Assembly (NCBI GenBank): GCA_016875535.1
Contig: VGPF01000004.1
Location: forward strand, 1,588 to 65,587
Direction: 5' to 3'
Source of the DNA: Chloroflexota bacterium
GTDB taxonomy: Bacteria; Chloroflexota; Dehalococcoidia; SHYB01
Length of the DNA stretch: 64,000 bases
Shown here piece after piece: positions 30,894 through 59,903 of this stretch. The position numbers were made by a program, and so were the translations under genes. Within the stretch, counting starts at the first letter, position 1. Each line of letters begins with the position of its first letter. The notes below the pieces were generated by a model that worked only from the letters and a program-made list of their open reading frames with translations, was not told where the DNA came from and did no database searches.

Positions 30894-30949
30894 CACCCTC
30901 TCCTCTCGGGCTACGCTCGAGTTCCTCTCCCATCGAGGGAGAGGAGGAT
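30894..30949 (+). repeat. Hairpin repeat element copy A (CACCCTCTCCTCTCGGGCTACGCTCGAGTTCCTCTCCCATCGAGGGAGAGGAGG)
   Basis: Terminal hairpin CCTCTCCC-atcga-GGGAGAGG. Near-identical copies at 52305 (inverted) and 54313. Confidence 0.8.
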
Positions 30950-30985
30950 TCGCATCAGGACGCTGTCCGAAATACAAAGGTCTCC

Positions 30986-32305
30986 TTACAGCACTTCGTT
31001 CCGCATCAAGTCTTCCGCGGTCTCCCGCCTGCGCCACAGCTTGGACCTGCCCTTATTGACGAGGACGATGGCCGGGCGCGAGACGGCGTTGTAGTTGCTG
31101 GACATGGCGATGCAGTAGGCGCCGGAGGCCGGGATGGCGATGATATCGCCGGCCCGGACCTTCGGCAGTTTGTAGTCCTTGATGAGCACGTCGCCGGATT
31201 CGCAGTATTTCCCGGCGATGGTCACCTTCTCGCGCTCCTTGGACTCGACGCGGTTGGCGACGAAGGCCTCATACTTGGAGCCGTAGATGGCGGGGCGGAT
31301 GTTATCCCCCATGCCGCCGTCCACGGAGACGTATTTGCGGACGCCGGGGATCGTCTTGGTCGCGCCGACGGTGTAGAGGGCGACACCCGCGCGACCGACG
31401 ATGGAGCGGCCGGGCTCCAGCACGAGCTTCGGCAGATCGAACTTGTGCCGCTTGCAGGCGGCCTTGAGCGCCGCCGTGATGGTCTCGGCGTAGTTCGCCA
31501 GGGGCGGCGGCGCCTTGTCCACGACGTACCGGATGGGAAAGCCGCCGCCGGGGCTGAACTCCAGCAGCTTCAGGCCGTGTTTGTCCCTCGCCTTGGCGAT
31601 GAAGCCGAAGATGACGTTGATCCCTTCGGCGTAGGGCGCCACTTCATAGATCGGCGAGCCGAGGTGGATATGGATGCCGATGAGGTTGAGGCTCCTGGCC
31701 TCTTGGGCCAGCCGCACGGCCTCCATCGCCTGCCCGTTCTCCAAGGTGAAGCCGAACTTGCTGTCCGTGATGCCCGTGGTGGTCTTGTGGTGCGTGTGGG
31801 GGTCCACGCCGGGGGAGATGCGCAGGAGGATGTCCTGCTTGCGCTTCGCCTTGGCGGCCAGCTCGTCCAGCAGCTTCAGCTCATGGAAGTTGTCCACGAC
31901 GATGCGCCCGATCTTCCACTTGAGCGCGAGCTCCAGCTCATCGGGCGTCTTGTTGTTGCCGTGGAAGTAGGCGCGCTCCGCCGGAAGGCCCGCAGCCCTG
32001 GCGATGGCGGCTTCGTTCCCGGAGACGACGTCCAGCCCGAGCCCCTCTTCGGCGATGAGCTTCACCAGCGGCGCGAGGAGGAGGGCCTTGGAGGCGTAGA
32101 GGACCTGCACCGATGGGTAGCGCTTGCCGAACTCCTGCTTGTAGGAGCGGCACTGGGAGCGGAGGGTCTGCTCATCGAAGACGTAGAGGGGCGTGCCGTA
32201 GGTCTTGGCCAGCGCGGCGGCCTCGATGCCGCCGATGCTCAGCCGGTTGTCCGGCCCGATGACCGCCGTCTTAGGAAAGATGGGAAGGATGGGATTGGAG
32301 GGCAT
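30986..32305 (-). CDS. lysA: Diaminopimelate decarboxylase
   Basis: PLP fold-III decarboxylase motifs. 439 aa with full-length similarity to LysA. Confidence 0.9.
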   Translation of the reverse strand: MPSNPILPIFPKTAVIGPDNRLSIGGIEAAALAKTYGTPLYVFDEQTLRSQCRSYKQEFGKRYPSVQVLYASKALLLAPLVKLIAEEGLGLDVVSGNEAAIARAAGLPAERAYFHGNNKTPDELELALKWKIGRIVVDNFHELKLLDELAAKAKRKQDILLRISPGVDPHTHHKTTTGITDSKFGFTLENGQAMEAVRLAQEARSLNLIGIHIHLGSPIYEVAPYAEGINVIFGFIAKARDKHGLKLLEFSPGGGFPIRYVVDKAPPPLANYAETITAALKAACKRHKFDLPKLVLEPGRSIVGRAGVALYTVGATKTIPGVRKYVSVDGGMGDNIRPAIYGSKYEAFVANRVESKEREKVTIAGKYCESGDVLIKDYKLPKVRAGDIIAIPASGAYCIAMSSNYNAVSRPAIVLVNKGRSKLWRRRETAEDLMRNEVL

Positions 32306-32432
32306 AGCGTCTCTGCTTAGTGAAGAGGAAGGCCGGGATGGAAGGCTTGCGCCGCCCGGTTCGCACTTCTGAAGGTTGGCACCATGCTACCCAGGGGCGC
32401 CCCGGCGTGTCAATTTGTGACAGGAAGGCGGC

Positions 32433-32807
32433 CTAGCGGCGCCGGGAAGAGGCGCGGACCTTGCGCGAAGGGGTCTTCTTGGGGCCGACGGGCTTCAAGC
32501 GGCGGCCCTTGAGCACGACGCGCGGCTCATAGCCCAGGGCGACGGCCATCTTGGCGATGGTGGTGAGGGTCATGTTGGGCGGCGCGCTCATGACCTTGGA
32601 GACGTGAGCCTGGGAGACGCCCATCTGCCGGGCGAGCCAGGCTCGGGTGAGCTTGCGCCGCCGCAGCTCCCGCGCGACGGACTCGGTGACCTCCATGGCG
32701 AGGCCGATGGCGATGTAGACGGGGTCGTTGCGGTATTCGTCCGCCCATTGTTGAAGCAGAGGCTTCTCACTGGTTTCCGTATAGTACCGCCGTGGATTTG
32801 TGGTCAT
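32433..32807 (-). CDS. HigA-like XRE-family HTH antitoxin
   Basis: HTH 'LTRAWLARQMGVSQAHVSKV'. Downstream of the toxin gene (HigBA gene order). Confidence 0.65.
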   Translation of the reverse strand: MTTNPRRYYTETSEKPLLQQWADEYRNDPVYIAIGLAMEVTESVARELRRRKLTRAWLARQMGVSQAHVSKVMSAPPNMTLTTIAKMAVALGYEPRVVLKGRRLKPVGPKKTPSRKVRASSRRR

Positions 32808-32812
32808 TAACG

Positions 32813-33196
32813 CTATCCCTTCGGGCGCATCCATGTGAGAATCACGTCGCGGTATCGCTCTGCTCTCTCGAACTCCGGTTCGGGCGGCGCGCCCTTGTGA
32901 AATCCTCCCAAGAAGGCGATATCTCCATTGGGCAGGAGGGAATAGAGGAGCCTGTCCCCCTGATGCGACTTAAGCTCGAAGAGGTTCTTCCTCCCTTTGA
33001 TTTGGCGCGAGATCGCTGTGTTTGCGACTGGGCCGTGATTCGCAAGGCTCTCCGATCGTCGAACAAGGGCCTCGGCAGAGTTCCTGTTCGTCCGACGCAG
33101 CCGCTCCAGAAAGTCCATCGCAGGGGACCTTCCGGAACTATCGTACAGCGCCACTACTTTATGCAGCCTGCCGTGATAGACAACATCAAGTCGCAT
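32813..33196 (-). CDS. RelE/ParE-superfamily (HigB/Gp49-like) toxin
   Basis: ~125 aa, upstream partner of the HTH antitoxin. The family assignment is by weak similarity and gene order. Confidence 0.5.
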   Translation of the reverse strand: MRLDVVYHGRLHKVVALYDSSGRSPAMDFLERLRRTNRNSAEALVRRSESLANHGPVANTAISRQIKGRKNLFELKSHQGDRLLYSLLPNGDIAFLGGFHKGAPPEPEFERAERYRDVILTWMRPKG

Positions 33197-33333
33197 AGTA
33201 ACTCACAAGTTAAGTCTTGTCCACAGCCCGCGCCGTCGCTCGCAACGCACGCCACAAGTATTCGGCCCGTCCCCCGCGCCTGTCCAGGGGCGGTTGGCAC
33301 ACCCCCCGCACAAGGGGCCCCATCCCTGCGACA

Positions 33334-34755: not shown

Positions 34756-35276
34756 TGAGAACCATGAAACACCTCCGCATCGCCGCATCCGCCCTCGTCG
34801 CCCTGCTCATCGCGCTGGCCGTCACCGCCTGCGGCGATGACCCGCCGACCATCGGCATCCTGGAGCCGGACCTCGGCGCGAGCACGGAGGCGACGCGACT
34901 CGCCTTCCTGGAAGCGCTCAAGGCCGACGGCTTTGCGGCGGGCGACAACGTGCGCTTCTTCCGCCGGAACTATGAGTTCCGCGACGACCCCTACGACGAG
35001 CTTGCCGACTACCTGGCGAACGAGAAGAAGGTGGACTACTTCTTCGCCATGTCGCCAGAGGCCTTGGATGCCATCGCCAATGTGGCGGGCGGGAGGCCCA
35101 TCGTCTACGCCTTCGCGGGCGGCATCGTGAACCGCCCGCCCAACGCCGTCGGCGTCTCCATCGCCGCCGGGCCGGCGGCCGATCACAAGGGGCTTGGCAG
35201 CGCAGCGGGACACATCATGTCCCAGGTGCTGAGGGGCGTCCCCATCGCGGAGATCCAGGCGCCGGCGATCAGGTGA
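34755..35276 (+). CDS. Lipoprotein resembling an ABC-transporter substrate-binding protein, possibly truncated (174 aa)
   Basis: Lipobox AVTAC. Start overlaps the upstream stop (TAATG). Short for an SBP. Confidence 0.4.
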   Translation: MRTMKHLRIAASALVALLIALAVTACGDDPPTIGILEPDLGASTEATRLAFLEALKADGFAAGDNVRFFRRNYEFRDDPYDELADYLANEKKVDYFFAMSPEALDAIANVAGGRPIVYAFAGGIVNRPPNAVGVSIAAGPAADHKGLGSAAGHIMSQVLRGVPIAEIQAPAIR

Positions 35277-35322
35277 AACGGGCGTGTTATCACGCCATGC
35301 AAAGGACGCATGCCCTGCGCCC

Positions 35323-35940
35323 CTACGGTTTCGACGGGCGCGGGCGTTTCACTTCGTCTATGTTCATCTGAGAGACGAAGAGCGCGTGGAGGCCGTCCCA
35401 GGTCTTGAGGGCATCCTTCGGGTCGTCGCCGGCTGTGATTCGGAGGAAGAAGGCGCTGCCGTTCTCGAAGACAAAGGTCGGCGTGCCGAAGATGCCCAGC
35501 TTCGCCCCGCGCGTGTGGTCTTCGGCCAACCGGGCCAAGATCGCGGGGTCGCGTACATCCTTGTGGAAGCGGGCCATGTCCAGGCCAGCCGCCCGCGCGA
35601 TCTCTTCCATGTCCCCCGGCTCGCTGAACTCCTTCCGCCGCAGGTGCCGGCCCTCCATCAGCGACCAGCGCATGCGCTCGAAGGCCTCCTCCCCCTGGCG
35701 TCGCGCCGCCTCAGCGGCGCGGAAGGCGTGGAGGCCCCGGCTGGGCGTCTCCGGATGCTCCCACAGGCGCCAATCGGGGCCGTTCTTCTGGTTCACCTGG
35801 TCGAGGGCGAAATAGCGGAAGGTCCAGCGCAGCGGCCGTCCAGCGGCCTCCTCAGCCCGCTTCAACAGAAGCGAGGCCTGGTAGACCCAGGGGCAGGTGA
35901 AGTCGCCGTACAGATCGAAGGTTGCTTGCTTTGTGTCCAT
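35323..35940 (-). CDS. DsbA-like thioredoxin-fold protein (single-Cys CPW motif)
   Basis: FTCPWVYQ active-site region. DsbA-like fold features. Confidence 0.6.
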   Translation of the reverse strand: MDTKQATFDLYGDFTCPWVYQASLLLKRAEEAAGRPLRWTFRYFALDQVNQKNGPDWRLWEHPETPSRGLHAFRAAEAARRQGEEAFERMRWSLMEGRHLRRKEFSEPGDMEEIARAAGLDMARFHKDVRDPAILARLAEDHTRGAKLGIFGTPTFVFENGSAFFLRITAGDDPKDALKTWDGLHALFVSQMNIDEVKRPRPSKP

Positions 35941-36224: not shown

Positions 36225-36240
36225 GTGAGAGTCTGGTCGG

Positions 36241-37701: not shown

Positions 37702-38511
37702 ATGCCTAAATGGCTCGAAGGGCGCACGGCCCTGGTCACCGGCGCGAGCCGCGGCATCGGCGTCGGCATCGCCGTCTGCCTCGCCAAGGAGGGGGCGAAG
37801 GTCGCCCTCGCCTCTCGCACCGTCTCCGGCCTGGAGGCCGCGGCGGCTGAAGTGCGCAAGGCCGGCGGCGAGGCGCTGGTCGTCCCGGCCGATGTCACCA
37901 AAGAGGCGGACGTCGCCGCGATGGTGCGCGCGGTTGAGAAGAAGTGGGACCAGGTGGACATCCTGGTCAACAACGCAGGGGCCATGGGCGGCCCCGGGTG
38001 GAACACCGTGTGGCCCGAGCGCCCCCACGACTGGGAGCACGCCTTCCGCGTCAATACGCTCTCGCGCGTCCTGGCGATAAACGCCGTCGCCGAATCCATG
38101 AAGAAGCGCACATGGGGGCGCATCATCAACATCGCCTCGCCCGCCGGGCTGGAAGGCGTGACGCTGCACGTGGCCTACGCCGCCACCAAGGCGGCCGAGA
38201 TCAACTACACCCAGGCCATGGCTAAGGAGCTGGGCAAGTTCAACATCACGGTGAACGCCGTCCTCCCTGGCCTGGTCTACACGGAGATCTCCAACGAGCT
38301 GTGGCATCAGCTCAAGCTGAAGCACGGCGAGCGGCTCGCGGGCGACGACCCGAAGAAGTGGTTCGACGGCCTGGTGACGCGGCAGATCCCCCTGGGGCGC
38401 GCCCAGACGGCGGAAGACATCGGCTGGATGTGCGTCTTCCTCTGCTCCGAGCTCGCGCGCAATATCACGGGCCAGGCCATCAACGTGGACGGCGGCATGA
38501 AACCCCATTAA
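37702..38511 (+). CDS. SDR-family oxidoreductase
   Basis: TGASRGIG Rossmann motif, NNAG, YxxxK. Confidence 0.85.
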   Translation: MPKWLEGRTALVTGASRGIGVGIAVCLAKEGAKVALASRTVSGLEAAAAEVRKAGGEALVVPADVTKEADVAAMVRAVEKKWDQVDILVNNAGAMGGPGWNTVWPERPHDWEHAFRVNTLSRVLAINAVAESMKKRTWGRIINIASPAGLEGVTLHVAYAATKAAEINYTQAMAKELGKFNITVNAVLPGLVYTEISNELWHQLKLKHGERLAGDDPKKWFDGLVTRQIPLGRAQTAEDIGWMCVFLCSELARNITGQAINVDGGMKPH

Positions 38512-38547
38512 GAGATCTCCGCACCCTCTCTCCCCCGGCTGGAGAGA

Positions 38548-39264
38548 ATGAAAGAGAGGAGGATCGAGAGCGCCATGATTTACTACCAAGACATCGTCCA
38601 AGCCGAACCCGGCATGATGGACAGATACCTGAAGATCTTCGGCGAAAAGGCCCTCCCGCCGCTGCTAGAGCGCGGCAACAAGCCCATCGGCATGTACCGC
38701 GTCGTCCCCGGCACAGGCACCTATAACGAAGTGATCTTCATCAACGGCATTGACGATTGGCGGCGCTGGGGCAAAGACGTGGCGACGACCGAAGGCCACC
38801 CCAATCGCGATGAGTGGCACCCCGGCGTGCGCTCCTGGGCCGAGATGGCCTTCGATTACCGCAAGCGGTGGATCAAGAACTTCTACTTCCCCGCGCCCTT
38901 TGCGCCATCGCATGAGCAGCTCATGAAGCGCAAGAAGAACGGCGCGACCTTCATCCACTTAATGTACCGCGTCACCCCGGGCAAGATGGAGCAGTGGCTC
39001 GATTTCGCAGGCTCCACCCTCAAGCCCGCCTGGGAGAAGCAGGGCATGGAGCTCATCACCTTTCTTCACATCTTCCCCGGCACCGGCCCCAGCGACCAGT
39101 GCGTGGAGCTCTGGGCCGTGAAGGACTGGAACGACTGGTCCGATGTGGTCCAGGCGCGCCAACGGCACCTGCCGCTCAAGCGCGCCCTCGCCAGGGCCCT
39201 CGCCTTCCGCGACCGCTGGGACGAGCGCACGCTTCTCCCGGCTCCCTGGTCGCCCGTCCAGTAG
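38548..39264 (+). CDS. NIPSNAP-like dimeric alpha/beta-barrel protein (two repeats)
   Basis: Two ~100-aa internal repeats. Weak family assignment. Confidence 0.45.
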   Translation: MKERRIESAMIYYQDIVQAEPGMMDRYLKIFGEKALPPLLERGNKPIGMYRVVPGTGTYNEVIFINGIDDWRRWGKDVATTEGHPNRDEWHPGVRSWAEMAFDYRKRWIKNFYFPAPFAPSHEQLMKRKKNGATFIHLMYRVTPGKMEQWLDFAGSTLKPAWEKQGMELITFLHIFPGTGPSDQCVELWAVKDWNDWSDVVQARQRHLPLKRALARALAFRDRWDERTLLPAPWSPVQ

Positions 39265-40772: not shown

Positions 40773-41678
40773 CTAGCGAAAGTTCGCCATGATCTTGGAG
40801 GCGAAGGTCTCCAACTGCTCGCAGTAGTGCTCCAGGGACTTCGCCCGGAAGTAGAAGTTCATCCCCGTGGCGCCCGCCTTTTGATAGGCCGCAATTTGGT
40901 CCACCAGGGCTGCGAAACCCTTCGGCTCGCTGATGTCATAGTTCGGGTCGCCCATGATGACGACTTCCAGGGGCGAGGCGCGGGCCTTCCACTCGGGAGT
41001 CTGCTTCACCGCCGTGATGATCTCGGTGAACTGCTCGATGGATAGGCCGGGGGTGTCCCAGCCGTCCGCACTCGCCACGGCGCGCCGCAGGGAGACCTTC
41101 GTGTTCCCGCCCAGCCAGATGGGCATGCGCTCCTGGACGGCGTGCGGGTCAATAATGAAATCATCGAAGTTGTAGTACTTCCCGTGAAAGACCGGCTGCC
41201 GCTCCCCCATGGCTGCGCGCAGGGCCTGCAGTCCCTCGGTGTAGCGCTCGGCCCGATGCTCGAACTCCACGCCCAGCAGGTCGAACTCCTCTTTCAACGT
41301 GCCGACGCCGACTCCCAGGATGAGCCGCCCGCCGGAGATCACGTCCAGCGTCCCGTAGCGCTTCGCCACGGAGAGCGGGTGGTGGTACGGCAGCACGATG
41401 ACGTGCGTCAGGAACTTCAGCCGCTTCGTCACCGCCGCCAGGTAGCCGAAGGTTGCCAGCGGGTCGTAGTACCGCGGCCCGCGCGACTGCACGATGTGCG
41501 TAGGGATGCCCACATGCTCGCTGCAGGAGATGTGGTGGATGCCCAGGCGGTCCGCCGTGACAGCGATCTGCCGCAGCTCCCTGGGGCCGCTCTCTACCTC
41601 CCACGGCTGGTGCCGGCGCGTCAGGTGCGTCGCGATTGGCGTCACCAGCCCGAAGAGCATCCCGCGCTCAGCCATCAA
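40773..41678 (-). CDS. LLM-class F420-dependent oxidoreductase (paralog a)
   Basis: Luciferase-like fold. 50% identity to the adjacent paralog. Confidence 0.8.
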   Translation of the reverse strand: MMAERGMLFGLVTPIATHLTRRHQPWEVESGPRELRQIAVTADRLGIHHISCSEHVGIPTHIVQSRGPRYYDPLATFGYLAAVTKRLKFLTHVIVLPYHHPLSVAKRYGTLDVISGGRLILGVGVGTLKEEFDLLGVEFEHRAERYTEGLQALRAAMGERQPVFHGKYYNFDDFIIDPHAVQERMPIWLGGNTKVSLRRAVASADGWDTPGLSIEQFTEIITAVKQTPEWKARASPLEVVIMGDPNYDISEPKGFAALVDQIAAYQKAGATGMNFYFRAKSLEHYCEQLETFASKIMANFR

Positions 41679-41741
41679 TCCCCCCGATCATCCTTGGCTC
41701 AAGCTCCGTCTTCCTACTCTGTGCGCTCTGTGGACGAATCT

Positions 41742-42644
41742 CTACTGGAACTTCCCCGCGACTCGGTCCCTAAATATCTCCAGCTGTTCGCAGTAGTGCT
41801 CCAGGGATGTTGAGCGGAAATACATGTTGAGGATCGTCCCGCCCGCCCTTCGATAGCTGGCGATCTGGTCCGTCACGCCGGCAAGCCCGCTCGTGGTCGT
41901 GACGTCGTAGACCGGCTCCGGCCCGAGCACCACATCGAAGGGCTCCCTCCGCGATCGCCACTCAGGCCACTGCTTCGCCTCGGGCAGCAGCGCGCCCAGC
42001 GTCGCCAGGTCGAAGCCGAACGGGTCCCAGCCGTCGGCCGAGGCCAGCGCCCGCTTGAGCGAAAGCTTGGTGCGCCCGCCCAGCCAGATCGGCACATGCT
42101 CCTGTACGCCGTGGGGCTCGATCACGAAGTCGTCGAACTCGTAGAACTTCCCCTTGAAGACGGGCTTCTGCTTGCCGAAGGATTCGCGAAGAGCCTGCAG
42201 CGCCTCCGTGTAGATCTCCCCACGGCGCTCGAACTCGGCGCCCAGCAGCTCGAACTCTTGCCGCAGGCTGCCGACGCCGATGCCCAGGATGACCCGCCCT
42301 TCGGACATCCTGTCCAGCGTGCCGTAACGCTTCGCCACCGCGAGCGGGTGATGGTACGGCAGCACCAGCACGTGGGTCGCGAACCGGATGCGCTTGGTAA
42401 GCGCGGCGAAATAGCCGAAGGTCGCCAGCGGATCGTAGTAGCGGTGGCCGCGTATCTTCCCGATCTCCGTGGGGATGCCCACATGCTCGCTGCACGTCAT
42501 GTGGTAGAAGCCGCAGCGGTCCGCCGTGATGGCGATCTGCCGCAATTCCGCCGGGCCGCCCTCCGTCTCCCATTTCCCATGCCGCCTGGGCAAATGCGTC
42601 AGGATCGGCGTCAAGATGCCGAACTTCAGCGCCTGCTCTGCCAT
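41742..42644 (-). CDS. LLM-class F420-dependent oxidoreductase (paralog b)
   Basis: Tandem duplicate of the previous gene. Confidence 0.8.
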   Translation of the reverse strand: MAEQALKFGILTPILTHLPRRHGKWETEGGPAELRQIAITADRCGFYHMTCSEHVGIPTEIGKIRGHRYYDPLATFGYFAALTKRIRFATHVLVLPYHHPLAVAKRYGTLDRMSEGRVILGIGVGSLRQEFELLGAEFERRGEIYTEALQALRESFGKQKPVFKGKFYEFDDFVIEPHGVQEHVPIWLGGRTKLSLKRALASADGWDPFGFDLATLGALLPEAKQWPEWRSRREPFDVVLGPEPVYDVTTTSGLAGVTDQIASYRRAGGTILNMYFRSTSLEHYCEQLEIFRDRVAGKFQ

Positions 42645-42747
42645 CTCTGCCTCCCGATGACTCTACTGTCTCACGACCGAGCTCGTGCCGTCTCCCGTCC
42701 CGCGCGCTCTGTACAGAGCGACGAGCGGGCTAGAGGGAGAAACTCGC

Positions 42748-51262: not shown

Positions 51263-51414
51263 CTGTTGTTCCCAGCCTTTCGTATCGGCTCATCGTCCGC
51301 GCCCTGTAACGAGACGGCTGGATCGTGGTCCGCCAGCGCGGCAGCTTCTCACGCAGTTTGATTCAGAAGTCAAGATTCCTGAATCGTCTTGCCTCCCGCC
51401 GCGCGATTCGCTAG
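51259..51414 (+). pseudogene. Decayed HicA toxin (in-frame TAA at 51307-51309; C-terminal half diverged)
   Basis: GTG overlaps the hicB stop. ...YRLIVRAL*RDGWIVVRQRGSF... parallels the HicA consensus LIkaLekdGWvlvRqkGSH, but has a stop codon and lacks the catalytic His. Confidence 0.55.
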
Positions 51415-51514
51415 ACTGGTTCCTGTGCACCCTTCCCATGGTGAGTCCGGCGAGGGCGTACCAATACAACTCGCGCTGTTCGAGATTTTCGAGGCCTTCT
51501 CCTACCCCGTTCCT

Positions 51515-52264
51515 ATGCCTCCCTCCCAGCGAACAACAAGCGCGAAGGCGACCCTGCGCGTCGGGCGCTCCACCATCCGCTACCAGGTGGTCCGCAGCCC
51601 CAAGCGCCGCCGCACGCTCCAGATCACCGTTGACCCCAGCGATGGCGTCATTGTGGCCGTGCCCATGCGCGCCTCCTGGAGTGATATCAACAGCTTTGTG
51701 AAGCAGAAGGCCCGCTGGATCCTCAAGACCGTCGGCGAGATGCGCAAGCGCGGGCGGCGGCGCGCCTTCGTCACCGGGGAGACGCTCCCCTATCTCGGCC
51801 GCCCGGCCAAGCTGGTGCTGGAAGCCAAGCCCGTGGCCGAAGTCTCCGTGACCCTGGAGGGCTGGCGCTTCCACGTGGGCGTGCCGGAGGAGCTGCGGGG
51901 CAAGCGCCGCCGCGAAGCCATCGTGGAGGCCTTCAAAGGCTGGTACACCAGGCACGCCTACGAGCCTATCGCCAACAGCCTCGCCAGGTGGTCGGAGGTC
52001 ATGGGCCTCAAGGCCAAGCGCCTCCTCATTCGCGATCAGCGCCAGCGGTGGGCCAGCTGCGCCAGGGATGGCACCCTCCGCTTCAACTGGCGCGTCGCCC
52101 TGATGGAGCCTTCGCTCATAGACTACATCGTCGTCCACGAGCTGGCGCACATCGCTGTGCCGAACCATTCGCAGCGGTATTGGCAGCGCGTCGCCAGGTT
52201 CATTCCGGATTTCACCGCCCGGCGCGCCAAGCTCCGCCAGGCAGGCCACCTCTTCACGATGTGA
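51515..52264 (+). CDS. M48-family / YgjP-like (DUF45) metal-dependent hydrolase
   Basis: HELAH zinc-binding motif near the C-terminus. Confidence 0.7.
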   Translation: MPPSQRTTSAKATLRVGRSTIRYQVVRSPKRRRTLQITVDPSDGVIVAVPMRASWSDINSFVKQKARWILKTVGEMRKRGRRRAFVTGETLPYLGRPAKLVLEAKPVAEVSVTLEGWRFHVGVPEELRGKRRREAIVEAFKGWYTRHAYEPIANSLARWSEVMGLKAKRLLIRDQRQRWASCARDGTLRFNWRVALMEPSLIDYIVVHELAHIAVPNHSQRYWQRVARFIPDFTARRAKLRQAGHLFTM

Positions 52265-52304
52265 CCCTCTTTGGGTGGAAGTTCACTTCTGCCCGCGCGC
52301 TTCT

Positions 52305-52350
52305 CCCTTGATGGGAGAGGAACTCGAGCGTAGCCCGAGAGGAGAGGGTG
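52305..52350 (-). repeat. Hairpin repeat element copy B (inverted orientation)
   Basis: Reverse complement of copy A with one mismatch. Confidence 0.8.
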
Positions 52351-52354
52351 TCTC

Positions 52355-53512
52355 TCAGTCCAGGTGGTAGACCCGCCGCGCATTCTCGTACACGATCTTG
52401 CGGCGCTCGTCCTCTGGCACGCCCTTCAGCGATTTGTCCACCGCCTGGTGGGAGAAGGGCCACGTGGTGTCCGTGTGCGGGTAATCGGACTCCCACAGGA
52501 TGTTTTCGACGCCGATGAGGCTGCGCGCGAAGATGCCGGCATAGTCTTCGATGAAGGCGACGTAGCACTGGCGGTGGAAGTAGCTGGAGGGCAGCTCCTT
52601 GATCTGGGCCTTCATCCAGAAGCGGTGACGGTTGAAGGCATGGTCGGCGCGCTCCAGGAAGTAGGGCACCCAGCCGATGCCGCCCTCCGATGAGACGCAG
52701 ACGAGCTTGGGATGCCGCGCCAGCAGTCCGCCCCAAACGATCCAGGCCAGGATGGAGAAGTTGGTGAGGGAGCTTTCCGTGAGGAAGACCTCCGCCTGGC
52801 CGGGCAGCGGGTCCTTGAGGAAGTTCGCCTGCTGGGTGCGTCCCCCGGCGATGTGGAGGTTGATGGGCAGGTTGTACTCTTCGCAGAGCGACCAGACGGG
52901 GTCGTACTGCGGGTGGACGATGGACTTGCACCCGGGGACTTCGGCGAGCCAGGCCGGGATGGAGAGGGACTTGATGCCGCGCTTGGCGATGCGCCGCAGC
53001 TCCGCCTCCGCTTCATCGGGGTCGTTCATGGGCAGGATGCCCAGGCCGATGAGCCGTCCCTTGCGCGGCCCCTGGTACTCTTCGATCAGCCAATCGTTGT
53101 AGGCCTGGAAGGAGAGGCGGCGCACCTCCGGGTCTGCGATCTGCATCAGCTTCTCGCCGCCGATGCCCGGGACAGAGGGGAAGGAGATCTGGGTGCGGAT
53201 GCCGTCCAGGTCCATATCTTTTACCCGGGCCGCCGGGTCGTAGCAGCCGGGGCGCATATCAGAGAACTTCTGCGCCTTGGCGGAATACTCCTCGAACTTC
53301 TTGCCCGCCTGGGCGTTGAGGCCGATGTTGGGGTAGACCTTCCCTTCGATCTGCCAGGATTCGGTGCCGTCCGCCGCGGGGACCACATGGGGGACCTTGG
53401 CCTTCAGCGCCCCCGTTGCCCGGGAGGTCCAGACGTGCGCCGGCTCGATGATATGGTCGTCGGCAGAGATGAGGTCAAGCTTTCCCCAGGGTTTCGTCGG
53501 GATATCCAGCAC
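52355..53512 (-). CDS. Amidohydrolase-2 family protein
   Basis: Same family as 36471..37628 (DDHIIEP...DYPH). Confidence 0.75.
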   Translation of the reverse strand: MLDIPTKPWGKLDLISADDHIIEPAHVWTSRATGALKAKVPHVVPAADGTESWQIEGKVYPNIGLNAQAGKKFEEYSAKAQKFSDMRPGCYDPAARVKDMDLDGIRTQISFPSVPGIGGEKLMQIADPEVRRLSFQAYNDWLIEEYQGPRKGRLIGLGILPMNDPDEAEAELRRIAKRGIKSLSIPAWLAEVPGCKSIVHPQYDPVWSLCEEYNLPINLHIAGGRTQQANFLKDPLPGQAEVFLTESSLTNFSILAWIVWGGLLARHPKLVCVSSEGGIGWVPYFLERADHAFNRHRFWMKAQIKELPSSYFHRQCYVAFIEDYAGIFARSLIGVENILWESDYPHTDTTWPFSHQAVDKSLKGVPEDERRKIVYENARRVYHLD

Positions 53513-53566
53513 GTGCCACCTCCGTAGTCAAAGGTCGGGTGCGGCTATTGTACCGCGCCGCAGCAA

Positions 53567-54244
53567 TCACGTGACGGCGTGCGCCAGGGAGGTGGCGGCA
53601 TCGTAGATGGCGTTGCTGAAGGCGCTGCCGCCCACCAGGAGCACGACGAGCAGGATGGGGATGCCGTAGGGCTCCAGCCGCCCGATATCGTTGGCGGTCT
53701 CCCGGGGAAGGATGCCCTGGAGGACCTTGAAGCCGTCCAGGGGCGGGATCGGGATGAGGTTGAAGATGGCCAGGGTGAGGTTGATGAGGACGGCGAAGCT
53801 GAGGGTGATGGAGAAGAAGGCGGTGCCGCTATAGGTGAGGAGATCCCAGCTCAGGCCGGGGAACCAGACGAGGTGGCCCAGCTTGAAGGGGATGGCCAAA
53901 AGGAAAGCAAGGGCGACGTTGGCAAGCGGCCCCGAGGCGGCGACGAGGGCCATGCCCCGGCGCGCCCCCGCCGTGAGGGCGTTGGGGTTCACCGGCACGG
54001 GCTTGCCCCAGCCGAAGCCGGCCAAGAGCATCATGAGGGTGCCCGCCGGGTCCAGGTGGCGAATGGGATTCAGCGAGACGCGCCCGAGCCGCTTGGCCAT
54101 GCTATCTCCCTGGAGGTGGGCGACGAGGGCGTGGCCGAACTCATGGATGGTGAGGCCGATGAGGAGCGACGGGATGATGACGACGATGAATGCGCCGAGG
54201 GCTTGGAAGAAGTCGTCGCGGTTGTTGAGGAGGTAGAGGACCAT
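53567..54244 (-). CDS. Site-2 protease family (M50) membrane metalloprotease
   Basis: HEFGHAL zinc motif in a TM helix, with a second downstream motif. Confidence 0.8.
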   Translation of the reverse strand: MVLYLLNNRDDFFQALGAFIVVIIPSLLIGLTIHEFGHALVAHLQGDSMAKRLGRVSLNPIRHLDPAGTLMMLLAGFGWGKPVPVNPNALTAGARRGMALVAASGPLANVALAFLLAIPFKLGHLVWFPGLSWDLLTYSGTAFFSITLSFAVLINLTLAIFNLIPIPPLDGFKVLQGILPRETANDIGRLEPYGIPILLVVLLVGGSAFSNAIYDAATSLAHAVT

Positions 54245-54312
54245 GGACTTACATGATACAGCAGGGCTCTGTATCAGAATCAGAGTTGTAAACCGATGGT
54301 CCGACAATCAAT

Positions 54313-54366
54313 CACCCTCTCCTCTCGGGCTTCGCTCGAGTTCCTCTCCCATCGAGGGCGAGGAGG
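54313..54366 (+). repeat. Hairpin repeat element copy C
   Basis: TCACCCTCTCCTCTCGGGCTTCGCTCGAGTTCCTCTCCCATCGAGGGCGAGGAGG. Confidence 0.8.
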
Positions 54367-55167
54367 ACTGGGGCGAGGTCTCCTTTAGGAGGGGGACTGC
54401 TCAGCGCGGCTTGCAGTGTCCCGGCGGATCGTCTGATTGTGTGTTCCGCGATCGTGGTTGGCGGATACGGCGTTGCGCAGACGGCCCAAGGTTCGAGGTG
54501 TCCCGGTGCCACCGGGGACTGCGAGGCTCGGCAGGGGCGCTGCGCACCTTGGAGAGATGCGCGCCGCCTCCGGCGTTTCTCCCTTGCGGGAGGACGGGCC
54601 CACCGAACGCCCAGCGACAGGTGTCTGCCGGCCAGCCTCGCGGGTGAGCCTACGGGAATCTACGAGGCGCATGCCTTGCGCCTCTTCGCCCCGCCCCGCT
54701 AACGGGGCGAGCGCTGTCTGCGAACGAAGACCTCCTTTGGGGCCTTGCCCCGGATATGCGGGTGGCCCTTAGGGCGCACCCCTACGGCGCATCCCTACCA
54801 GAATGTTCAGCCCGGCGGGTTGAACTCCGGAGGGCGTGCCTTTCGCCTCCCGATGGGATCGGGATCTCCGACGCCCTCTTATGAGGACGTCTTCGACCTA
54901 CCTTTCATTTCCTCTCCCTGTAATGCCTTGCCGCGCGAGGAGTCTTCGGCGGTTCGGCGCGCGCCCTACGCGTCGGGCTTACGCCGGCCACTGGGGCCGT
55001 CCACGCAACGCTGGACAAACAAAAAGGGGAAGCGTTCCGACCGAGGGCGCGGTTTCGCGCTCCTTCGAATCGTCACGCCTCCCCGGCTCGCTGTCCTGGC
55101 GAAGGCTTACAAGTGAATAATAGTCAGGTTGTGCGAGAGCGTCAAGAGCTTAGCTTCGTCCCTGGAG

Positions 55168-56322
55168 TCACGGGCGCTGGGAGAGGGGGATGTAGGGGAG
55201 GTCCATGGGGCCGACGTAGTGGGTGAGGGGGCGGATGAGGATGTTGTTTTCGAGCTGTTCGACGGCCTGGGCGGTCCAGCCGGGGACGCGGCCTGCGGCG
55301 AAGATGGGGACGAAGAGATCGGGCGGGAAGCCGTTGAGGTAGTAGATGACGCCGGCGTAGAAGTCCACGTTGACGTAGAGGCCGTGGCGACCCAGGGGCT
55401 TCATGGCCTCGACGACGGCTTCCAAGACGGCGTACCAGCGCGGCTCGTTGCGCTCGGCGCTGAGGCGCTTGACGCCTTCGCGGAGGTGCTTGGCGCGGGG
55501 GTCTTCGACGCGGTAGACGCGATGGCCGAAGCCGGTGATGCGCTTGCCTTCGGCGCGGAGGCGCTTCACGTAGGCCTCGGCATCCTCGGGGCGGCCGATC
55601 TCCATGGCCATCAGCATGACGTTTTCGGCGGCGCCGCCGTGGGCAGGCCCGGAGAGTGCGGCGATGGCGCCGACGACGGCGGCGTGGAGGTTGGCCTGCG
55701 TGCCGATGATGACTCGGGCGGCGAAGGCGGAGGCGTTGGGGCCGTGCTCGGCGTGGAGGATGAAGTCCACGTCCATGAGCCGGGCGGCATCGGCCGTGGG
55801 CTCGGCGCCGTGGAGCATGTAGAGCATGTTGGCGGCGTGAGAGAGGGTCTTGCTGGGCGCAACGGGGGCGCGGCCGTTCCGGATGGCGTGATGGGCCATC
55901 ATGATGACGGGGACCTGCGCGGTGAGTCGCGTGCCCTTGCGAATGGCGGCGGGGATGGAGCTGTCGCCGTTATCGGGGTCGAAGGCGCCCAGGGCAGAGA
56001 CGGCGGTGCGCAGGACGTCCATGGGGTGGGCGTGCTTGATGGTGCGGATGATATCGAGCACCTGAGGCGGAATCGCTCGCGCGGCCTTCAGCTCGGCATC
56101 GAAGGCAGCGAGCTCGGACTTGGAGGGCAGGCGTCCGTGGAGGAGGAGGTAGGACGTCTCTTCGAAGGTGGAATAGTTCGCCAGGTCGTCTATCGAATAG
56201 CCGCGATAGAGGAGCTTGCCGACCTTGCCATCTATGAAGGAGGCGCGGGTGCGGTCGAAGTAGACGCCATTGAGGCCGCGGTGGATGGGAATCCCGCCAG
56301 CCGAATCGCCGGATTGGGTCAT
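55168..56322 (-). CDS. Citrate synthase
   Basis: Full-length citrate synthase signatures (GFGHRVY, catalytic His and Asp). Confidence 0.9.
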   Translation of the reverse strand: MTQSGDSAGGIPIHRGLNGVYFDRTRASFIDGKVGKLLYRGYSIDDLANYSTFEETSYLLLHGRLPSKSELAAFDAELKAARAIPPQVLDIIRTIKHAHPMDVLRTAVSALGAFDPDNGDSSIPAAIRKGTRLTAQVPVIMMAHHAIRNGRAPVAPSKTLSHAANMLYMLHGAEPTADAARLMDVDFILHAEHGPNASAFAARVIIGTQANLHAAVVGAIAALSGPAHGGAAENVMLMAMEIGRPEDAEAYVKRLRAEGKRITGFGHRVYRVEDPRAKHLREGVKRLSAERNEPRWYAVLEAVVEAMKPLGRHGLYVNVDFYAGVIYYLNGFPPDLFVPIFAAGRVPGWTAQAVEQLENNILIRPLTHYVGPMDLPYIPLSQRP

Positions 56323-56378
56323 GCAGCCTCTCTCAACAAGGGGGCTTTGCCCCAAAAGTCATTAAGTTGTCGTTGTGC

Positions 56379-56447
56379 CCCCTCACCTCTCGGGAAGCAT
56401 CGGAATGCTTCTCGAGTTCCTCTCCCCCGATGGGGCGAGGGACGAGG
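56379..56447 (+). repeat. Hairpin repeat element copy D (variant with internal AAGCAT-cgga-ATGCTT palindrome)
   Basis: CCCTCACCTCTCGGG...CTCGAGTTCCTCTCCCCCGATGGGGCGAGGGACGAGG. Confidence 0.7.
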
Positions 56448-56616
56448 TGTGAGTTGCCAGCAACGTCTATTTTTGAGGCAAGTCCCCACAAAGGCCTGAG
56501 GGCATCATACCGCAGAGGGCGGGGGCGTATCAGTCGTGAAGGAACTGCAAGGGGGCGTTTTCCGGTTCGTTCCAGGAGTAGCAGGGCGACGGCGACAATT
56601 CGGCGAAGGCTTTGGG

Positions 56617-57102
56617 TTATTCGCGGAAGTTGACGTATTGCAAGGGCTGATTGAGCTTGAGGGACTTGACGAGGGCGATGGCGGACTGAAGGTCGTCGCG
56701 CTTTTTGCCGGTGACGCGAAGCTCTTCGCCCTGGATGGAGGCCTGGACTTTGATGCCGCTATCCTTGACGGCCTTGGCGATCTTCTTGCCCAGCTCCTGG
56801 GGGATGCCTTGCTTCACCACGGCGGGCTGTCGCACGGTGCCGCCGGCCGCCGGCTCGACGGTCTTGAAATCGAGGGCGGCGAGCTCGATGCCTCGGCGCA
56901 CCAGGTATTTGGCGAAGACTTCCTTGAGCTGTTTCAGCTTGAACTCATCGGCGGTGGCGAGGGTGAGGCTGAGCTTATCGCGGTCTATGGAGAACGTGGT
57001 GTCCTTGAAATCGTAGCGTTCGCCCAGCTCGCGCCGGACGCCGTTGATGGCGTTGTCTACCTCATCGAGGTTGGTGCGGGAGACGATGTCAAAGGAGGGC
57101 AT
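56617..57102 (-). CDS. YajQ family (UPF0234) nucleotide/c-di-GMP-binding protein
   Basis: MPSFDIVS...full-length similarity to YajQ. Confidence 0.8.
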   Translation of the reverse strand: MPSFDIVSRTNLDEVDNAINGVRRELGERYDFKDTTFSIDRDKLSLTLATADEFKLKQLKEVFAKYLVRRGIELAALDFKTVEPAAGGTVRQPAVVKQGIPQELGKKIAKAVKDSGIKVQASIQGEELRVTGKKRDDLQSAIALVKSLKLNQPLQYVNFRE

Positions 57103-57225
57103 GAACAGTTTCCCTGGGGAAGGTGTGGGAACCATGATAGCAGGTTGGGCGGTGCATCCGGCGAATCATTGCTATACTGCGTCACCTGGGGAACGTGCTC
57201 AAGCTGGTGCTTAAGCCAGGGAAAA

Positions 57226-57282
57226 TCACCCTCTCCCTTCGAGGGACTCAGGACAAGCTCTCTCCCATCAAGGGAGAGGAGG
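57226..57282 (+). repeat. Hairpin repeat element copy E (variant)
   Basis: TCACCCTCTCCCTTCGAGGGA...CTCTCCCATCAAGGGAGAGGAGG. Confidence 0.7.
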
Positions 57283-57344
57283 TCAAAGAAGCATCACTCC
57301 CTTGGCGCGCTTTGGCCGGGGAGCTTACGGAGCGGCAGGTGGCT

Positions 57345-59903
57345 ATGGATACGCGCGCAATCGCAGGGCTGCGGGTGCTGGACATGAGCCGGGGGATCGC
57401 GGGCGCATATTGCACGAAGCTTCTGGCTGACCTGGGGGCAGAGGTTATCTTTCTCGAGCCTCCGGGCGGCCACCCGCTGCGTCGAGAGGGGCCGTTTCTC
57501 ACGAGGCTGGGCAGGCCGGATGAGAGCGGGCTCTTTCATTTTCTGTGCGCGAATAAGTCGGCGATCATCGCGGATGTGGGAGTACCCTCATCTGAGACAG
57601 GAGCACCCTCTCCCGGCTTAGCGAGAGACTCGCAAAGCCGACCTCTCCCATCGAGCCCCGAAAGGCTCGGGGTGCGCGATAGGAATCGGCAGGAGAGGAA
57701 CGATGAGGCGGAGCGAGTGCGGAGGCTGATCGCAGGGGCGAACTTGGTGGTGGAGGATGGGCAGCCTGGAGAGATGGCGAGCCGCGGCTTGGGCCATGCA
57801 GCGCTGAAGGGGCTGCATCCATCCCTGGTGGTGACTTCGCTCACGCACTTTGGGCCGACGGGGAGATGGCGCGACTGGGAGGGGAGCGAGATCGCTGATT
57901 GGGCGATGGGCGGCTATATGTATTTCGGAGGGCATCCGGAGCGGGAGCCTTTGATGATCCCGTGCGACCAGGCGGCCTTCCATGCGGGGGTGCAGGCGGC
58001 GATCGGGTCGCTGGCGGCGCTGCGGTGGGCGAAGGCGACGGGCCAGGGACAGCGCGTGGAGGTCTCCGCGCTGGAGGCGCTGCTCTCCGCGCACATCTGG
58101 ACGGTGGCGCGGTGGACGCACCACGGGCAGGTGATGCGGCGGACGGGGACGGACGTGACGCGCTGCAAGGACGGCTTCGTGCGGTTCCTGGTGAACCGCT
58201 ATACGCCGGAGATGTTCCTGCTGGTTGACCGTCCGGACCTGATGGACGACCCGCGCTTCGCCGACCAGCCGAGCTGGCGGAAGAACTATCCCGAATTCCG
58301 CGTGATCCTGGAGGAGTGGTGCCTGGGACAATCGAAGGACGACATCTTCCGCCGAGGTCAGGAGCTGCGGATCCCGTGCGCGCCGGTGTGGGATGCGAAG
58401 GATCTGAGCACATCGGCGCTCTTGCAGGAGCGGAAGTGGCTTGTGGCGTACGAGCCGGGGCTGGTTTTTCCGGGGTATCCATATCTTATGAGCGAATCGC
58501 CGCCTTCGCTGCGAAAGCGGGCGCCGGTGTTGGGAGAGTCGGTGGAAGACTGGGCAAGCCCAGGGAATCCCCCTCTCTTTTCTTCTCTCCCGCCAGGGGA
58601 GAGAAAAGGAGCGCGGAAGGCCGCTTCCCGGCAAAAGAACAAAAGGAGGTTGCCGCTGGAGGGTATGCGGGTGCTGGAGATCACGGGGAACTGGGCGGGG
58701 CCGTACGCGGGACGCATGCTGGCGGACCTGGGGGCGGAGGTCATCAAGATCGAGGACCCAAAGAATCCCCAGGGGCGCAATATGCTGTACCCAGGGATCC
58801 AGCCGCTGAAGCACCACTACAACCGCTCGGCCTATTTCAACAAGCTGCACCGGAACAAGAAGTCGCTGACGCTGGACGTGAGCGAGCCGGAGGGCCGCGA
58901 GACCTTCCTGAAGCTCATCGAGCTTTCCGATGTGTTCATCGAGAACACGAGCCTGCGGGTGATGCGGAACTTCAACATCCGCTATAAAGACTTGCGCAGG
59001 GTGAACCCGCAGCTCATCTACGCGGCGATCTCGGCCTTTGGCGATACTGGGGCGCTGGCGGACTATGTGGCCTACGGCGGCAATATCGAGGCGGCCTGCG
59101 GGCTTTCGGCGGTGATGGGCTACCTGGGGGAGGACTATCCGTACAACAGCGGGCAGTTCTACTGCGACCCGATCACGGCTTCGCACGCGGCGGTGGCGGT
59201 GCTGGCGGCGCTGGAGTACCGGGAGCGCACGGGGAAGGGGCAGTACCTGGACCTTTCGCTGGCGGAGAACGGGATCAACTTTTTCGCGGAGTCGTTCCTG
59301 GAGTATGTCTGCACCGGGAAGAAGCGCCCGGCGATGGGGAATCGCCATCCGGTCTACGCGCCCCAGGGGTGCTATCCCACTGTGGGGGACGATATGTGGA
59401 TGGTGGTGACGGTGCGCTCGGATGAGGAATGGCAGCGGTTCGCTGATGTGCTGGGTGCGCCGGAGCTGAAGGACGAGCGGTATCGCACGGTGGAGGGAAG
59501 GCGGCGGCACCACGATGAGCTGGACGCCATGATCAAGAAGTGGTCGGCACGGTACGACCATGTAGAGGCGTCGTCGCTCTTGCAGCGGGTGGGGATTTCG
59601 GCGGCGCCGGTGCTGACGAACTGGGAAATGGTAAGCAACGCGCATATCTTCGACCTTGGCTTTTACCAAACGATCCCCCACCCGGAGATGGGGGCCTATC
59701 CGCAGCCTGGGATGCCGTGGCGGCTTTTGGAGTCGCCCGGGGTTATCCAGGCGCCGGCGCCGCTCTATGGGGCGCACAACGAGGAGATCCTGCGGGGGCT
59801 GCTGAAGCTGCCAGAGGAGCGCCTGGCGACGCTGTATGGGAAGGGGATCGTGGCGGACGTGCCGCCGAGGACGATACCGCCGCCTGCGGTGCTGAATACG
59901 TAG
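57345..59903 (+). CDS. Tandem-fused family III CoA-transferase (two complete CaiB/BaiF-like modules in one ORF)
   Basis: Two N-terminal motifs (GLRVLDMSRGIAGAYCTKLLADLGAEVIFLE and GMRVLEITGNWAGPYAGRMLADLGAEVIKIE), each followed by a full CoA-transferase body. No stop codon separates them. Confidence 0.7.
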   Translation: MDTRAIAGLRVLDMSRGIAGAYCTKLLADLGAEVIFLEPPGGHPLRREGPFLTRLGRPDESGLFHFLCANKSAIIADVGVPSSETGAPSPGLARDSQSRPLPSSPERLGVRDRNRQERNDEAERVRRLIAGANLVVEDGQPGEMASRGLGHAALKGLHPSLVVTSLTHFGPTGRWRDWEGSEIADWAMGGYMYFGGHPEREPLMIPCDQAAFHAGVQAAIGSLAALRWAKATGQGQRVEVSALEALLSAHIWTVARWTHHGQVMRRTGTDVTRCKDGFVRFLVNRYTPEMFLLVDRPDLMDDPRFADQPSWRKNYPEFRVILEEWCLGQSKDDIFRRGQELRIPCAPVWDAKDLSTSALLQERKWLVAYEPGLVFPGYPYLMSESPPSLRKRAPVLGESVEDWASPGNPPLFSSLPPGERKGARKAASRQKNKRRLPLEGMRVLEITGNWAGPYAGRMLADLGAEVIKIEDPKNPQGRNMLYPGIQPLKHHYNRSAYFNKLHRNKKSLTLDVSEPEGRETFLKLIELSDVFIENTSLRVMRNFNIRYKDLRRVNPQLIYAAISAFGDTGALADYVAYGGNIEAACGLSAVMGYLGEDYPYNSGQFYCDPITASHAAVAVLAALEYRERTGKGQYLDLSLAENGINFFAESFLEYVCTGKKRPAMGNRHPVYAPQGCYPTVGDDMWMVVTVRSDEEWQRFADVLGAPELKDERYRTVEGRRRHHDELDAMIKKWSARYDHVEASSLLQRVGISAAPVLTNWEMVSNAHIFDLGFYQTIPHPEMGAYPQPGMPWRLLESPGVIQAPAPLYGAHNEEILRGLLKLPEERLATLYGKGIVADVPPRTIPPPAVLNT
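57604..57674 (+). repeat. Hairpin repeat element copy F, inserted in-frame inside the CoA-transferase CDS
   Basis: CACCCTCTCCCGGCTTAGCGAGAGACTCGCAAAGCCGACCTCTCCCATCGAGCCCCGAAAGGCTCGGGGTG encodes a ~50-aa insertion between the conserved ADV and LVVEDG segments. Confidence 0.7.
58585..58604 (+). repeat. Short hairpin CTCTCCC-gcca-GGGGAGAG in the linker joining the two CoA-transferase modules
   Basis: Read directly. Same CTCTCCC/GGGAGAG arm motif as the repeat family. Confidence 0.5.

Follow-up and report, generated by a model that had tools for sequence, protein, structure and literature searches.

Dispersed hairpin repeats in a Thermoflexus-related Chloroflexota lineage: a probable modular subfamily of the BoxC-type elements

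What kind of element are the short hairpin repeats scattered through a 64-kb stretch of DNA from an uncultured relative of Thermoflexus, phylum Chloroflexota, two of them lying in frame within a CoA-transferase gene? The whole stretch analysed, here called the window (contig VGPF01000004.1 of GenBank assembly GCA_016875535.1, positions 1,588 to 65,587), carries at least nine copies, seven long forms (A to G) and two short forms (S1 and S2), as counted from matches to two covariance models, R1 and R2. A preliminary description of this DNA had presented the repeats as a previously undescribed family. Their blocks and the order of these blocks are those of the E. coli repeats named BoxC, PIT, TMECO or triplex motif, which have been known since the 1990s and across hundreds of genomes (PMC4666352). 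The window elements are probably a lineage-specific subfamily of these dispersed repeats, and what is new here is a hairpin-expanded, modular variant together with its host lineage.

Each element presents on one strand the order Y1 (CACCCTCNCC), connector, Y2 (CCTCTCCC), loop and R (GGGNGAGG). The block consensus is (T)CACCCTC(T/A)CC for Y1 and GGG(A/C)GAGG for R, and the loop between Y2 and R is usually ATCGA. Y2 and R form a hairpin, P2, and Y1 is a mirror sequence. The connector distinguishes the two forms: in the short form it is TTT(T/A)NT, 6-7 nt long, and in the long form it is a perfect modular hairpin, P1, of 13-53 nt. In G, F and several copies from metagenomes, one or two further hairpins are nested in the Y2-R loop. 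Repeat finding shows A, B and C to be mutually 94-98% identical over 49-56 nt, while D, E and F are diverged and have in common the 5' block CACCCTC(T/A)CC and CTCTCCC. Conservation reaches TCA at the left and a few purines past R at the right. Single-strand folds (ViennaRNA, Watson-Crick pairs only) form P1 and P2 and leave Y1 unpaired; copy A, for example, folds into two hairpins with its 5' block free.

The same architecture recurs across the larger set of copies. Over 73 distinct copies, 92.9% of the cells in the modelled stems are paired and compensatory changes are present, and a T.C (= G.A) mismatch occupies one stem position in 30 of 72 copies. There are 36 distinct connectors among 81 copies, with about seven hairpin modules that have the closing stem CTCG/CGAG in common. 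Every one of these 36 P1 spacers folds as a hairpin, an interior complementarity that the search pattern did not demand. Blocks so rich in CT and GA, in copies open in five of six reading frames, might suggest chance low-complexity matches or a conserved protein domain. That explanation is refuted: the 21-nt hairpin CCTCTCCCATCGAGGGAGAGG, with at most three mismatches, occurs four times in the window against 0.02 expected, covariance-model expectation values (E) go down to 1e-23 and reach 3e-14 for a copy outside the training set (S2, scored with R2), and the coding segment contributed by copy F is missing from 46 of 48 homologues.

R1 was built from copies A-E and two Thermoflexus hugenholtzii copies and scanned over the window without filters, and R2 from short-form copies of other loci only; E values from both are rough. 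Because D and E belong to the R1 training set, their R1 scores are not independent. On copies outside that set, R1 gives 28.2 bits for G (E 8.7e-7), 17.3 bits for S2 (match 58563-58611) and only 13.9 bits for F (E 0.017; match 57598-57709), while R2 gives 60 bits for S2 (E 2.9e-14) and 37.8 bits for S1 (E 1.8e-8). Copy F is real despite its low score, as seen from an orthologous copy with the same inner-hairpin type in a related contig (L124) and from its P1 and P2 fold; its P1 reads CGGCTT-AGCGAG..CTCGC-AAAGCCG, and its P2 is closed in the fold by CCTCTCC/GGAGAGG (~57643-57699) around two nested hairpins. The six copies of the preliminary description all exist, and the positions it gave are exact or off by a few bases, apart from the end of F, which moves from 57674 to ~57700. 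Two further hairpins that it had listed as relatives also exist but are more than that: the one at 19393-19435 is the 3' part of the full copy G, and the one at 58585-58604 belongs to the complete, in-frame short form S2.

The link to E. coli begins with the word GGGAGAGGG, which occurs in the motif literature, in Holder et al. 2015, where BoxC, PIT and TMECO are the same element (PMC4666352). The published TMECO pattern is 5'-CCCTCNCCC N3-6 GGGNGAGGG N3 GGGNGAGGG, with 3610 occurrences in 262 proteobacterial genomes (PMC4666352). Reverse-complemented, the window copies read CCTC(T/G)CCC-TCGAT-GGGAGAGG-[P1]-GG(A/T)GAGGG. On the purine-rich strand the three blocks and their order (CCCTCNCCC / GGGNGAGGG / GGGNGAGGG) are those of BoxC, which is visible in all copies, and each window block agrees at 8 of 9 positions (Table 1 of PMC4666352). 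Copy D, like the D-type copies generally, corresponds to the E. coli 'A mm' type (CCCTCGCCCC/GGGGAGAGGG/GGGTGAGGGG), including its G.A mismatch, and 'mm' types are frequent in both sets. Both are multi-copy and intergenic, occur in both orientations including inverted pairs, occupy sites that vary between relatives and have no known promoter or terminator role. R1, which contained no E. coli sequence, scores 33.9 bits (E 2.2e-8) on a BoxC copy of E. coli K-12 (NC_000913 164590-164641, downstream of hrpB; L172 291-342). A relaxed pattern, CCTCNCCC N3-7 GGGAGAGG N6-36 GGNGAGGG, matches three times in the window against none expected. Earlier BoxC and PIT work is reportedly that of Bachellier in the 1990s and of Hoyne and Maher in 2000.

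The window elements also differ from BoxC in several respects. Their blocks measure 8 nt instead of 9, and the second loop, 3 nt in E. coli, spans 6-7 nt in short forms and in long forms consists of a modular hairpin, 13-53 nt long. The first loop, 3-6 nt in BoxC, is 3-5 nt in basic copies and holds nested hairpins in others. The host is a thermophilic Chloroflexota lineage, and in-frame insertion into genes is recurrent there, whereas no report of in-frame BoxC-type insertions was found in the literature searched, the coverage of which was limited, or is known to us.

The core of the element extends well beyond these two lineages. A genome scan across phyla with the pattern CACCCTCTCCN{10,40}CTCTCCCATC, which is unspecific and yields at least 120 loci without per-genome copy numbers, required only Y1 and Y2; among the matches listed, the R block is present right after the loop in 51 of 120 loci, and many of those, from several phyla, also have a hairpin connector. 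Examples come from Pseudoxanthomonas, Hyphobacterium/Maricaulaceae, sphingomonads, Rhodospirillales, Geobacter, Verrucomicrobiia, Thermoanaerobaculia, Dehalococcoidia and Thermoflexus, and a second loop that holds a hairpin is part of the architecture in Proteobacteria, Acidobacteriota, Verrucomicrobiota and Dehalococcoidia. These loci indicate that the kind of element is already known and widespread. As for the host, one window gene is 83% identical in DNA to a contig of a T. hugenholtzii metagenome-assembled genome, and exact matches to window proteins occur in metagenome assemblies.

Y1 is near-invariant though unpaired in minimum-free-energy folds, which implies that it matters in some way. 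As a mirror sequence, it could lie as a third strand in the major groove of P2 or pair with R in place of Y2. The isolated BoxC single strand forms an intrastrand triplex in vitro (PMC4666352); a free Y1 beside the Y2-R hairpin is compatible with a triplex and is not evidence for one. Its role may be that of a Hoogsteen third strand, of an alternative Watson-Crick partner for R or of a site recognised by a protein. At the variable positions of Y1 and R, the combinations A/C and T/A dominate. This coupling was set aside as triplex evidence because the two positions fall in different base triples, and subfamily descent is the simpler explanation.

Further copies exist in the wider lineage. R1 matches 75 copies in 258 kb of related metagenome sequence (46 contigs, found with a lineage-specific pattern that fixed Y1, the P1 closing stem and Y2), and about 24 of them were not required by that pattern. 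Among these are short forms, long and short forms paired in inverted orientation (L145 1130-1182 + with 1215-1281 -; L160 1356-1419 + with 1433-1481 -) and one tandem array. The array (L139 2106-2480) consists of 5.2 units of 72 nt, runs to the contig end and lies directly 3' of an acyl-CoA dehydrogenase-like open reading frame (ORF); its units are single elements with a distinct P1 (TGGCTGGGAGTACCCGCCT). Several reading frames stay open throughout, so that a gene caller would take the array for a repeat protein. Two other contigs, L122 and L163, end inside copies, which indicates that the repeats break metagenome assemblies.

The placement of copies is strongly biased. By a rough stop-to-stop codon-score gene model, tandem genes flank 34 of 83 copies (22 antisense, 12 sense), convergent genes 9 and divergent genes 1; 26 are at contig edges, and 13 fall within stop-to-stop ORFs, several of these being really upstream of the true start. 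With ~79% of the DNA predicted to be coding, the intergenic bias is strong, and the initial view of a dispersed, mostly intergenic hairpin-repeat family is borne out. Such placement would also suit a cis-acting RNA or DNA motif that is not mobile and is selected at each site, such as a terminator without a U tail, a 3'-end mRNA stabiliser or a protein-binding site. The conserved secondary structure with compensatory changes and variable-length stems, the rarity in divergent promoter spacers (1 of 44) with enrichment between convergent and tandem genes, and the conserved Y1 and purine-rich 3' tail all fit that explanation. It is nonetheless very unlikely, given that copies stand in both orientations and also within coding regions and that orthologous sites are empty in close relatives with unchanged flanking genes. 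Terminator-like sites are not enriched (4 against 4.2 expected at 52000-58800), and none of them is a P2 hairpin with a T tail. In Rfam only a tRNA reaches the gathering score in the window, and at 52000-58800 the elements draw no match even with E as high as 5. PIT elements are likewise inactive as promoter or terminator in E. coli (PMC4666352).

The CoA-transferase gene holds two in-frame copies, F and S2, and not the single one first reported. Its product is a conserved protein in which two CaiB-like domains are fused, with a length of 800-815 aa in most Chloroflexota. At 902 aa, the public gene call P0001 is overlong: it begins at GTG 57195 and reads through copy E, in an extension spanning 57195-57344; the homologue starts MDTRAIAG/METNAIAG align with the ATG at 57345, which they show to be the true start and which gives a protein of ~852 aa. 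The earlier warning that such repeats mislead gene callers is justified by this example. The segment at the F site measures 12 residues in 45 of 48 homologues, 10 in one, 50 in the window and 41 in P0003, and it is lineage-specific; the net addition is 38 codons, not the ~50 aa first estimated. In P0003 the DNA (L124 1245-1320) is a clean element at the same codon position as F, scoring 40.2 bits, and its P1 is of the F type (CGGCTT...AAGCCGA) with compensatory differences in the inner stem. An old coding feature is ruled out as an account of F, since 46 of 48 homologues are without it and its DNA is a recognisable element.

The element at the F site is absent from the closest homologue (P0002 in L123, 84% identical) and from P0004 in L125. 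On the protein tree, the window protein pairs with P0002 (84% identical) and P0003 with P0004 (87%), the two pairs being 74-78% identical to each other; F is therefore patchy, which means that it was either gained twice at a single codon or gained once and then cleanly lost twice. The inter-domain linker carries a short form in the window, long forms with differing P1 hairpins in L124 and L155, and none in L123 or L125. These linker copies are best read, from the sequences compared, as independent insertions at a tolerant site. Other in-frame copies occur in an Lhr helicase gene (two) and a GHMP kinase gene, at positions between Pfam domains. All eight coding copies are in sense orientation, and seven of the eight use one frame, which reads SPSPL...SSPIEGEE (for example SPSPLGLRSSSSPIEGEE). 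An AlphaFold2 model of the window CoA-transferase has a mean predicted local distance difference test (pLDDT) score of 89.9 and a predicted template modelling score of 0.92; the only internal segments predicted with pLDDT <50, residues 83-103 and 417-431, coincide with the two element inserts.

Coding copies in the window lineage measure 45-110 nt. Rickettsia palindromic elements (RPEs) are ~100-150 bp long and confined to Rickettsia. The preliminary comparison with RPEs is apt for behaviour alone, both being short palindromic repeats placed in frame in unrelated genes at structurally tolerant positions. It does not extend to sequence or lineage, since the sequences are unrelated and the copies of the window lineage are mostly intergenic; with both different, the window family is not an RPE. 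In RPE-bearing genes, the insertions are in frame in unrelated protein-coding sequences and add a peptide at fold-compatible positions (PMC10969869).

Comparison of orthologous sites shows that the elements come and go. The B, E, F and linker sites are empty in relatives whose flanks are ~81-84% identical: the B site is empty in L130, and copy E is missing, with ~100 nt around it, from the homologous L123 spacer, where the flanks align. Conversely, an element upstream of lysA in L147 and another between the M50 protease and amidohydrolase genes in L130 occupy sites that are empty in the window. Filled and empty orthologous sites, together with the different linker forms, point to elements that are still being gained and lost and not to old sites that have become fixed. 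At the latter site in L130 (947-1837, orthologous to window ~53513-53566) there is also an 880-nt insertion with small ORFs and the element at one end, bounded by a ~40-nt direct repeat of the target (GGTGC..CTATTGTACCGCG..GCAAAAG.GGCGGA). It looks like a small cassette put in beside the element.

Element sites also coincide with larger differences between relatives. At either end of a 2.4-kb stretch with citrate synthase (54247-56617) lie C and D; L123 has just 205 nt there. The DUF520/YajQ gene stands upstream of the CoA-transferase gene and divergent from it in the window (56617-57135) and in L123, and downstream and convergent in L124 (3782-4267) and L125 (3617-4102). These gene orders indicate a putative small translocation or inversion, and its ends in the window coincide with D and E. 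After the CoA-transferase stop, 2.6 kb of window sequence (59904-62502) is absent from L123, which has 27 nt between the flanking genes. This stretch begins with stand-alone hairpins resembling P1 modules (CCCGATGCGAAATCGAGG; GGCCGAAGGTCCGGCCTGAGGACA), and an ORF at 60115-60999 has no Pfam match. Between C and citrate synthase, 54368-55167 is ~800 nt of G+C-rich DNA with no convincing ORF, no Pfam match and many short GC hairpins (GGGCGCACCCCTACGGCGCATCCC).

Filled and empty sites between relatives are also what a classical miniature inverted-repeat transposable element (MITE) would leave, that is, an insertion sequence shortened by deletion, which the DDE transposase of the parent element moves in trans and which ends in inverted repeats flanked by target-site duplications. 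The elements are indeed short, dispersed and non-coding, stand in both orientations and have near-identical copies within one genome, and a complementarity of 7 nt between their outer blocks (Y1 and R, CCTCTCC/GGAGAGG) can be read as short inverted repeats. Like the MITEs Correia/NEMIS, ERIC and Nezha, they are small and non-autonomous, change in copy number and occasionally fuse in frame with genes. They differ in lacking a target-site duplication: the mean longest shared flank word over 73 copies is 4.03 nt against 3.97 nt in shuffled pairings (maximum 4.27). No transposase gene or cognate insertion sequence with matching ends is seen in the window or the related loci, which are partial genomes. 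The three-block core common to E. coli and many phyla would be unexpected for the ends of one insertion-sequence family, and modular nested hairpins and a 72-nt tandem array are unlike MITEs. The MITE analogy first drawn is thus weak, with that 7-nt complementarity as its sole terminal inverted repeat, and we consider a MITE highly improbable.

Movement without target duplication would be natural for a REP/REPIN-like element, carried by a RAYT or IS200/IS605-type HUH enzyme that acts on hairpins in single-stranded DNA. REPs, BIMEs and REPINs are likewise short extragenic hairpin repeats that lie downstream of genes, singly, in pairs or in clusters, and the inverted pairs and tandem clusters described above recall BIMEs. 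The window elements, however, form a three-block mirror motif in place of a simple imperfect palindrome and have no 5' GTAG-type head. A tblastn search of 393 kb (the window and related loci) found no RAYT homologue (best E 0.7), a weak test with a single distant query, E. coli RayT, against partial genomes. In E. coli, moreover, the REPs flanking rayT belong to a family other than BoxC (PMC2267715). A REP/REPIN-like origin is therefore unlikely. With no duplication, RAYT homologue, terminator enrichment or Rfam match, the elements are read as non-autonomous, structure-defined DNA of the BoxC class.

Table 1. Repeat copies and neighbouring genes in the window, with strand, anatomy, setting and basis of identification.
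Feature	Position	Strand	Form and layout	Setting	Basis
Copy G	19396..19513	-	long form, D type; extra hairpins nested in P1 and P2 loop	after response-regulator gene (18680-19342, +), before next + strand ORF	
holB	29757-30815	-			Pfam
Copy A	30893..30948	+	long form; TCACCCTCTCC, P1 CTCGGGC-TAC-GCTCGAG, CCTCTCCC-ATCGA-GGGAGAGG	lysA/holB spacer, antisense to both	repeat finding; R1 83.4 bits (used in training)
lysA-type decarboxylase	30986-32305	-			Pfam
Short form S1	38511..38573	-	short form	spacer/start region of + strand genes 37702-38511 and 38548/38575-39264	
YgjP	51389-52264	+			Pfam
Copy B	52302..52351	-	long form	between convergent YgjP and amidohydrolase genes	98% complementary to A
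Amidohydrolase	52355-53512	-			Pfam
M50 protease	53567-54247/54307	-			Pfam
Copy C	54312..54367	+	long form; R block GGGCGAGG	upstream of M50 protease gene	96% identical to A; R1
Citrate synthase	55168-56355	-			Pfam
Copy D	56372..56449	+	diverged long form; 12-bp P1 (GGGAAGCAT-CGGA-ATGCTTCTC), Y1 CCCTCACC, R GGGGCGAGG	citrate synthase/DUF520 spacer	alignment, R1, fold
DUF520	56617-57135	-			Pfam
Copy E	57221..57290	+	diverged long form	divergent DUF520/CoA-transferase spacer	
Double CoA-transferase family III (CaiB-like) gene	57345..59903	+		host of F and S2	Pfam, homologues
Copy F	57603..57700	+	long form	in frame in first CaiB domain of CoA-transferase (aa 87-119 of 852-aa protein)	
Short form S2	58556..58620	+	short form; CCCCCTCTC-TTTTCT-TCTCTCCC-GCCA-GGGGAGAGA	in frame in linker of the two CaiB domains (aa ~408-423)	

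Pfam agrees with the gene context as first described (Table 1). Additional purine blocks, GGGGCGAGG and GGAGGGGGA, lie 3' of copy C. A second small motif, ...TCTTCGA..TCGACGGACCTCAGGACAGGC / CTGAGGACA, appears in spacers and in some elements (L123 1865-2069; the B-site spacer of L130; window 57243-57258 and 59960-59975), perhaps as a hairpin-repeat family in its own right or as a P1-type module that occurs free. A census of 11-mers for other high-copy repeats in the window returned coding-biased words only. Four tandem repeats of 384 nt (60-76% identical) at 16136-17637, within the ORF 15685-18717, are unrelated to the elements and probably code for sensor domains repeated within a signalling protein. 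Repeats of the CACGCCGAC type with 12/18-nt periods (6025-6234 and 6825-6868, ORF 5570-7072) probably encode a Thr/Pro-rich low-complexity stretch. Two tandem paralogues on the minus strand, 40776-41687 and 41745-42662, are 73% identical over 300 nt (41046-41345 / 42015-42314).

Several points weigh against the assignment to BoxC and against turnover by insertion. The strict published TMECO pattern has no match in the window, and the second loop is far longer than in any described BoxC member, a length that causes these elements to be missed by that pattern and by the ITxF search (loops 1-6 nt). Y1, the P1 closing stem and Y2 are present in the metagenome copies by construction, since the search pattern fixed them. 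The antisense over sense bias in tandem spacers (22 versus 12) is weak and comes from the rough gene model. Presence and absence between relatives might reflect deletion and not insertion, and F is patchy on the protein tree. The related contigs are ~16-26% diverged from the window, which blurs insertion junctions, and the filled and empty sites compared, ~16-20% diverged, define no exact junction or target motif; nor was a mobilising enzyme found in the window and related loci. Even the E. coli BoxC triplex is known only on isolated single strands, not in vivo (PMC4666352). Because CCTCTCC is its own mirror image, the sequence reads alike for a Hoogsteen third strand and for a Y1 that pairs with R by Watson-Crick rules.

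Taking the assignment to BoxC as the working basis, the elements would be non-autonomous, selfish or near-neutral DNA defined by its structure, gained and lost rapidly through a structure-dependent process without target duplication. For gain, candidate routes would be insertion or template switching at replication forks, on single-stranded DNA, and for loss, excision by slippage across hairpins. We infer such fork-associated single-strand insertion and excision by analogy with hairpin-dependent elements and with the slippage and stalling model proposed by Holder et al. (PMC4666352). Selection would then keep only harmless copies. Intergenic survivors would lie mainly downstream of genes or between tandem genes, and coding survivors would be stop-free and frame-preserving, sit in surface loops or linkers and mostly use the Ser/Pro/Gly/Glu-rich frame. 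The coincidence of element sites with local rearrangements would parallel E. coli, where BoxC repeats are linked to local genome variability (PMC4666352).

A broader proposal is that BoxC-type three-block elements form a pan-bacterial class of structure-defined mobile DNA. Their Y1/Y2/R core would serve as the substrate for a mobilisation route that leaves no duplication, and in Thermoflexus-like Chloroflexota this route would be active enough to keep inserting Ser/Pro-rich linkers into proteins, in the manner of RPEs. This proposal is speculative and rather doubtful as it stands. If true, the hairpin-expanded variants and their polymorphic sites would offer a first opportunity to read off the mechanism of insertion and its target.

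In practice, the elements break metagenome assemblies and lengthen ORF calls, as in the 902-aa call for a protein of ~852 aa. They extend the range of the motif to thermophilic Chloroflexota and to a modular architecture that is invisible to short-loop searches. Their recurrent in-frame insertions, with one preferred frame, show that such repeats can remodel proteins.

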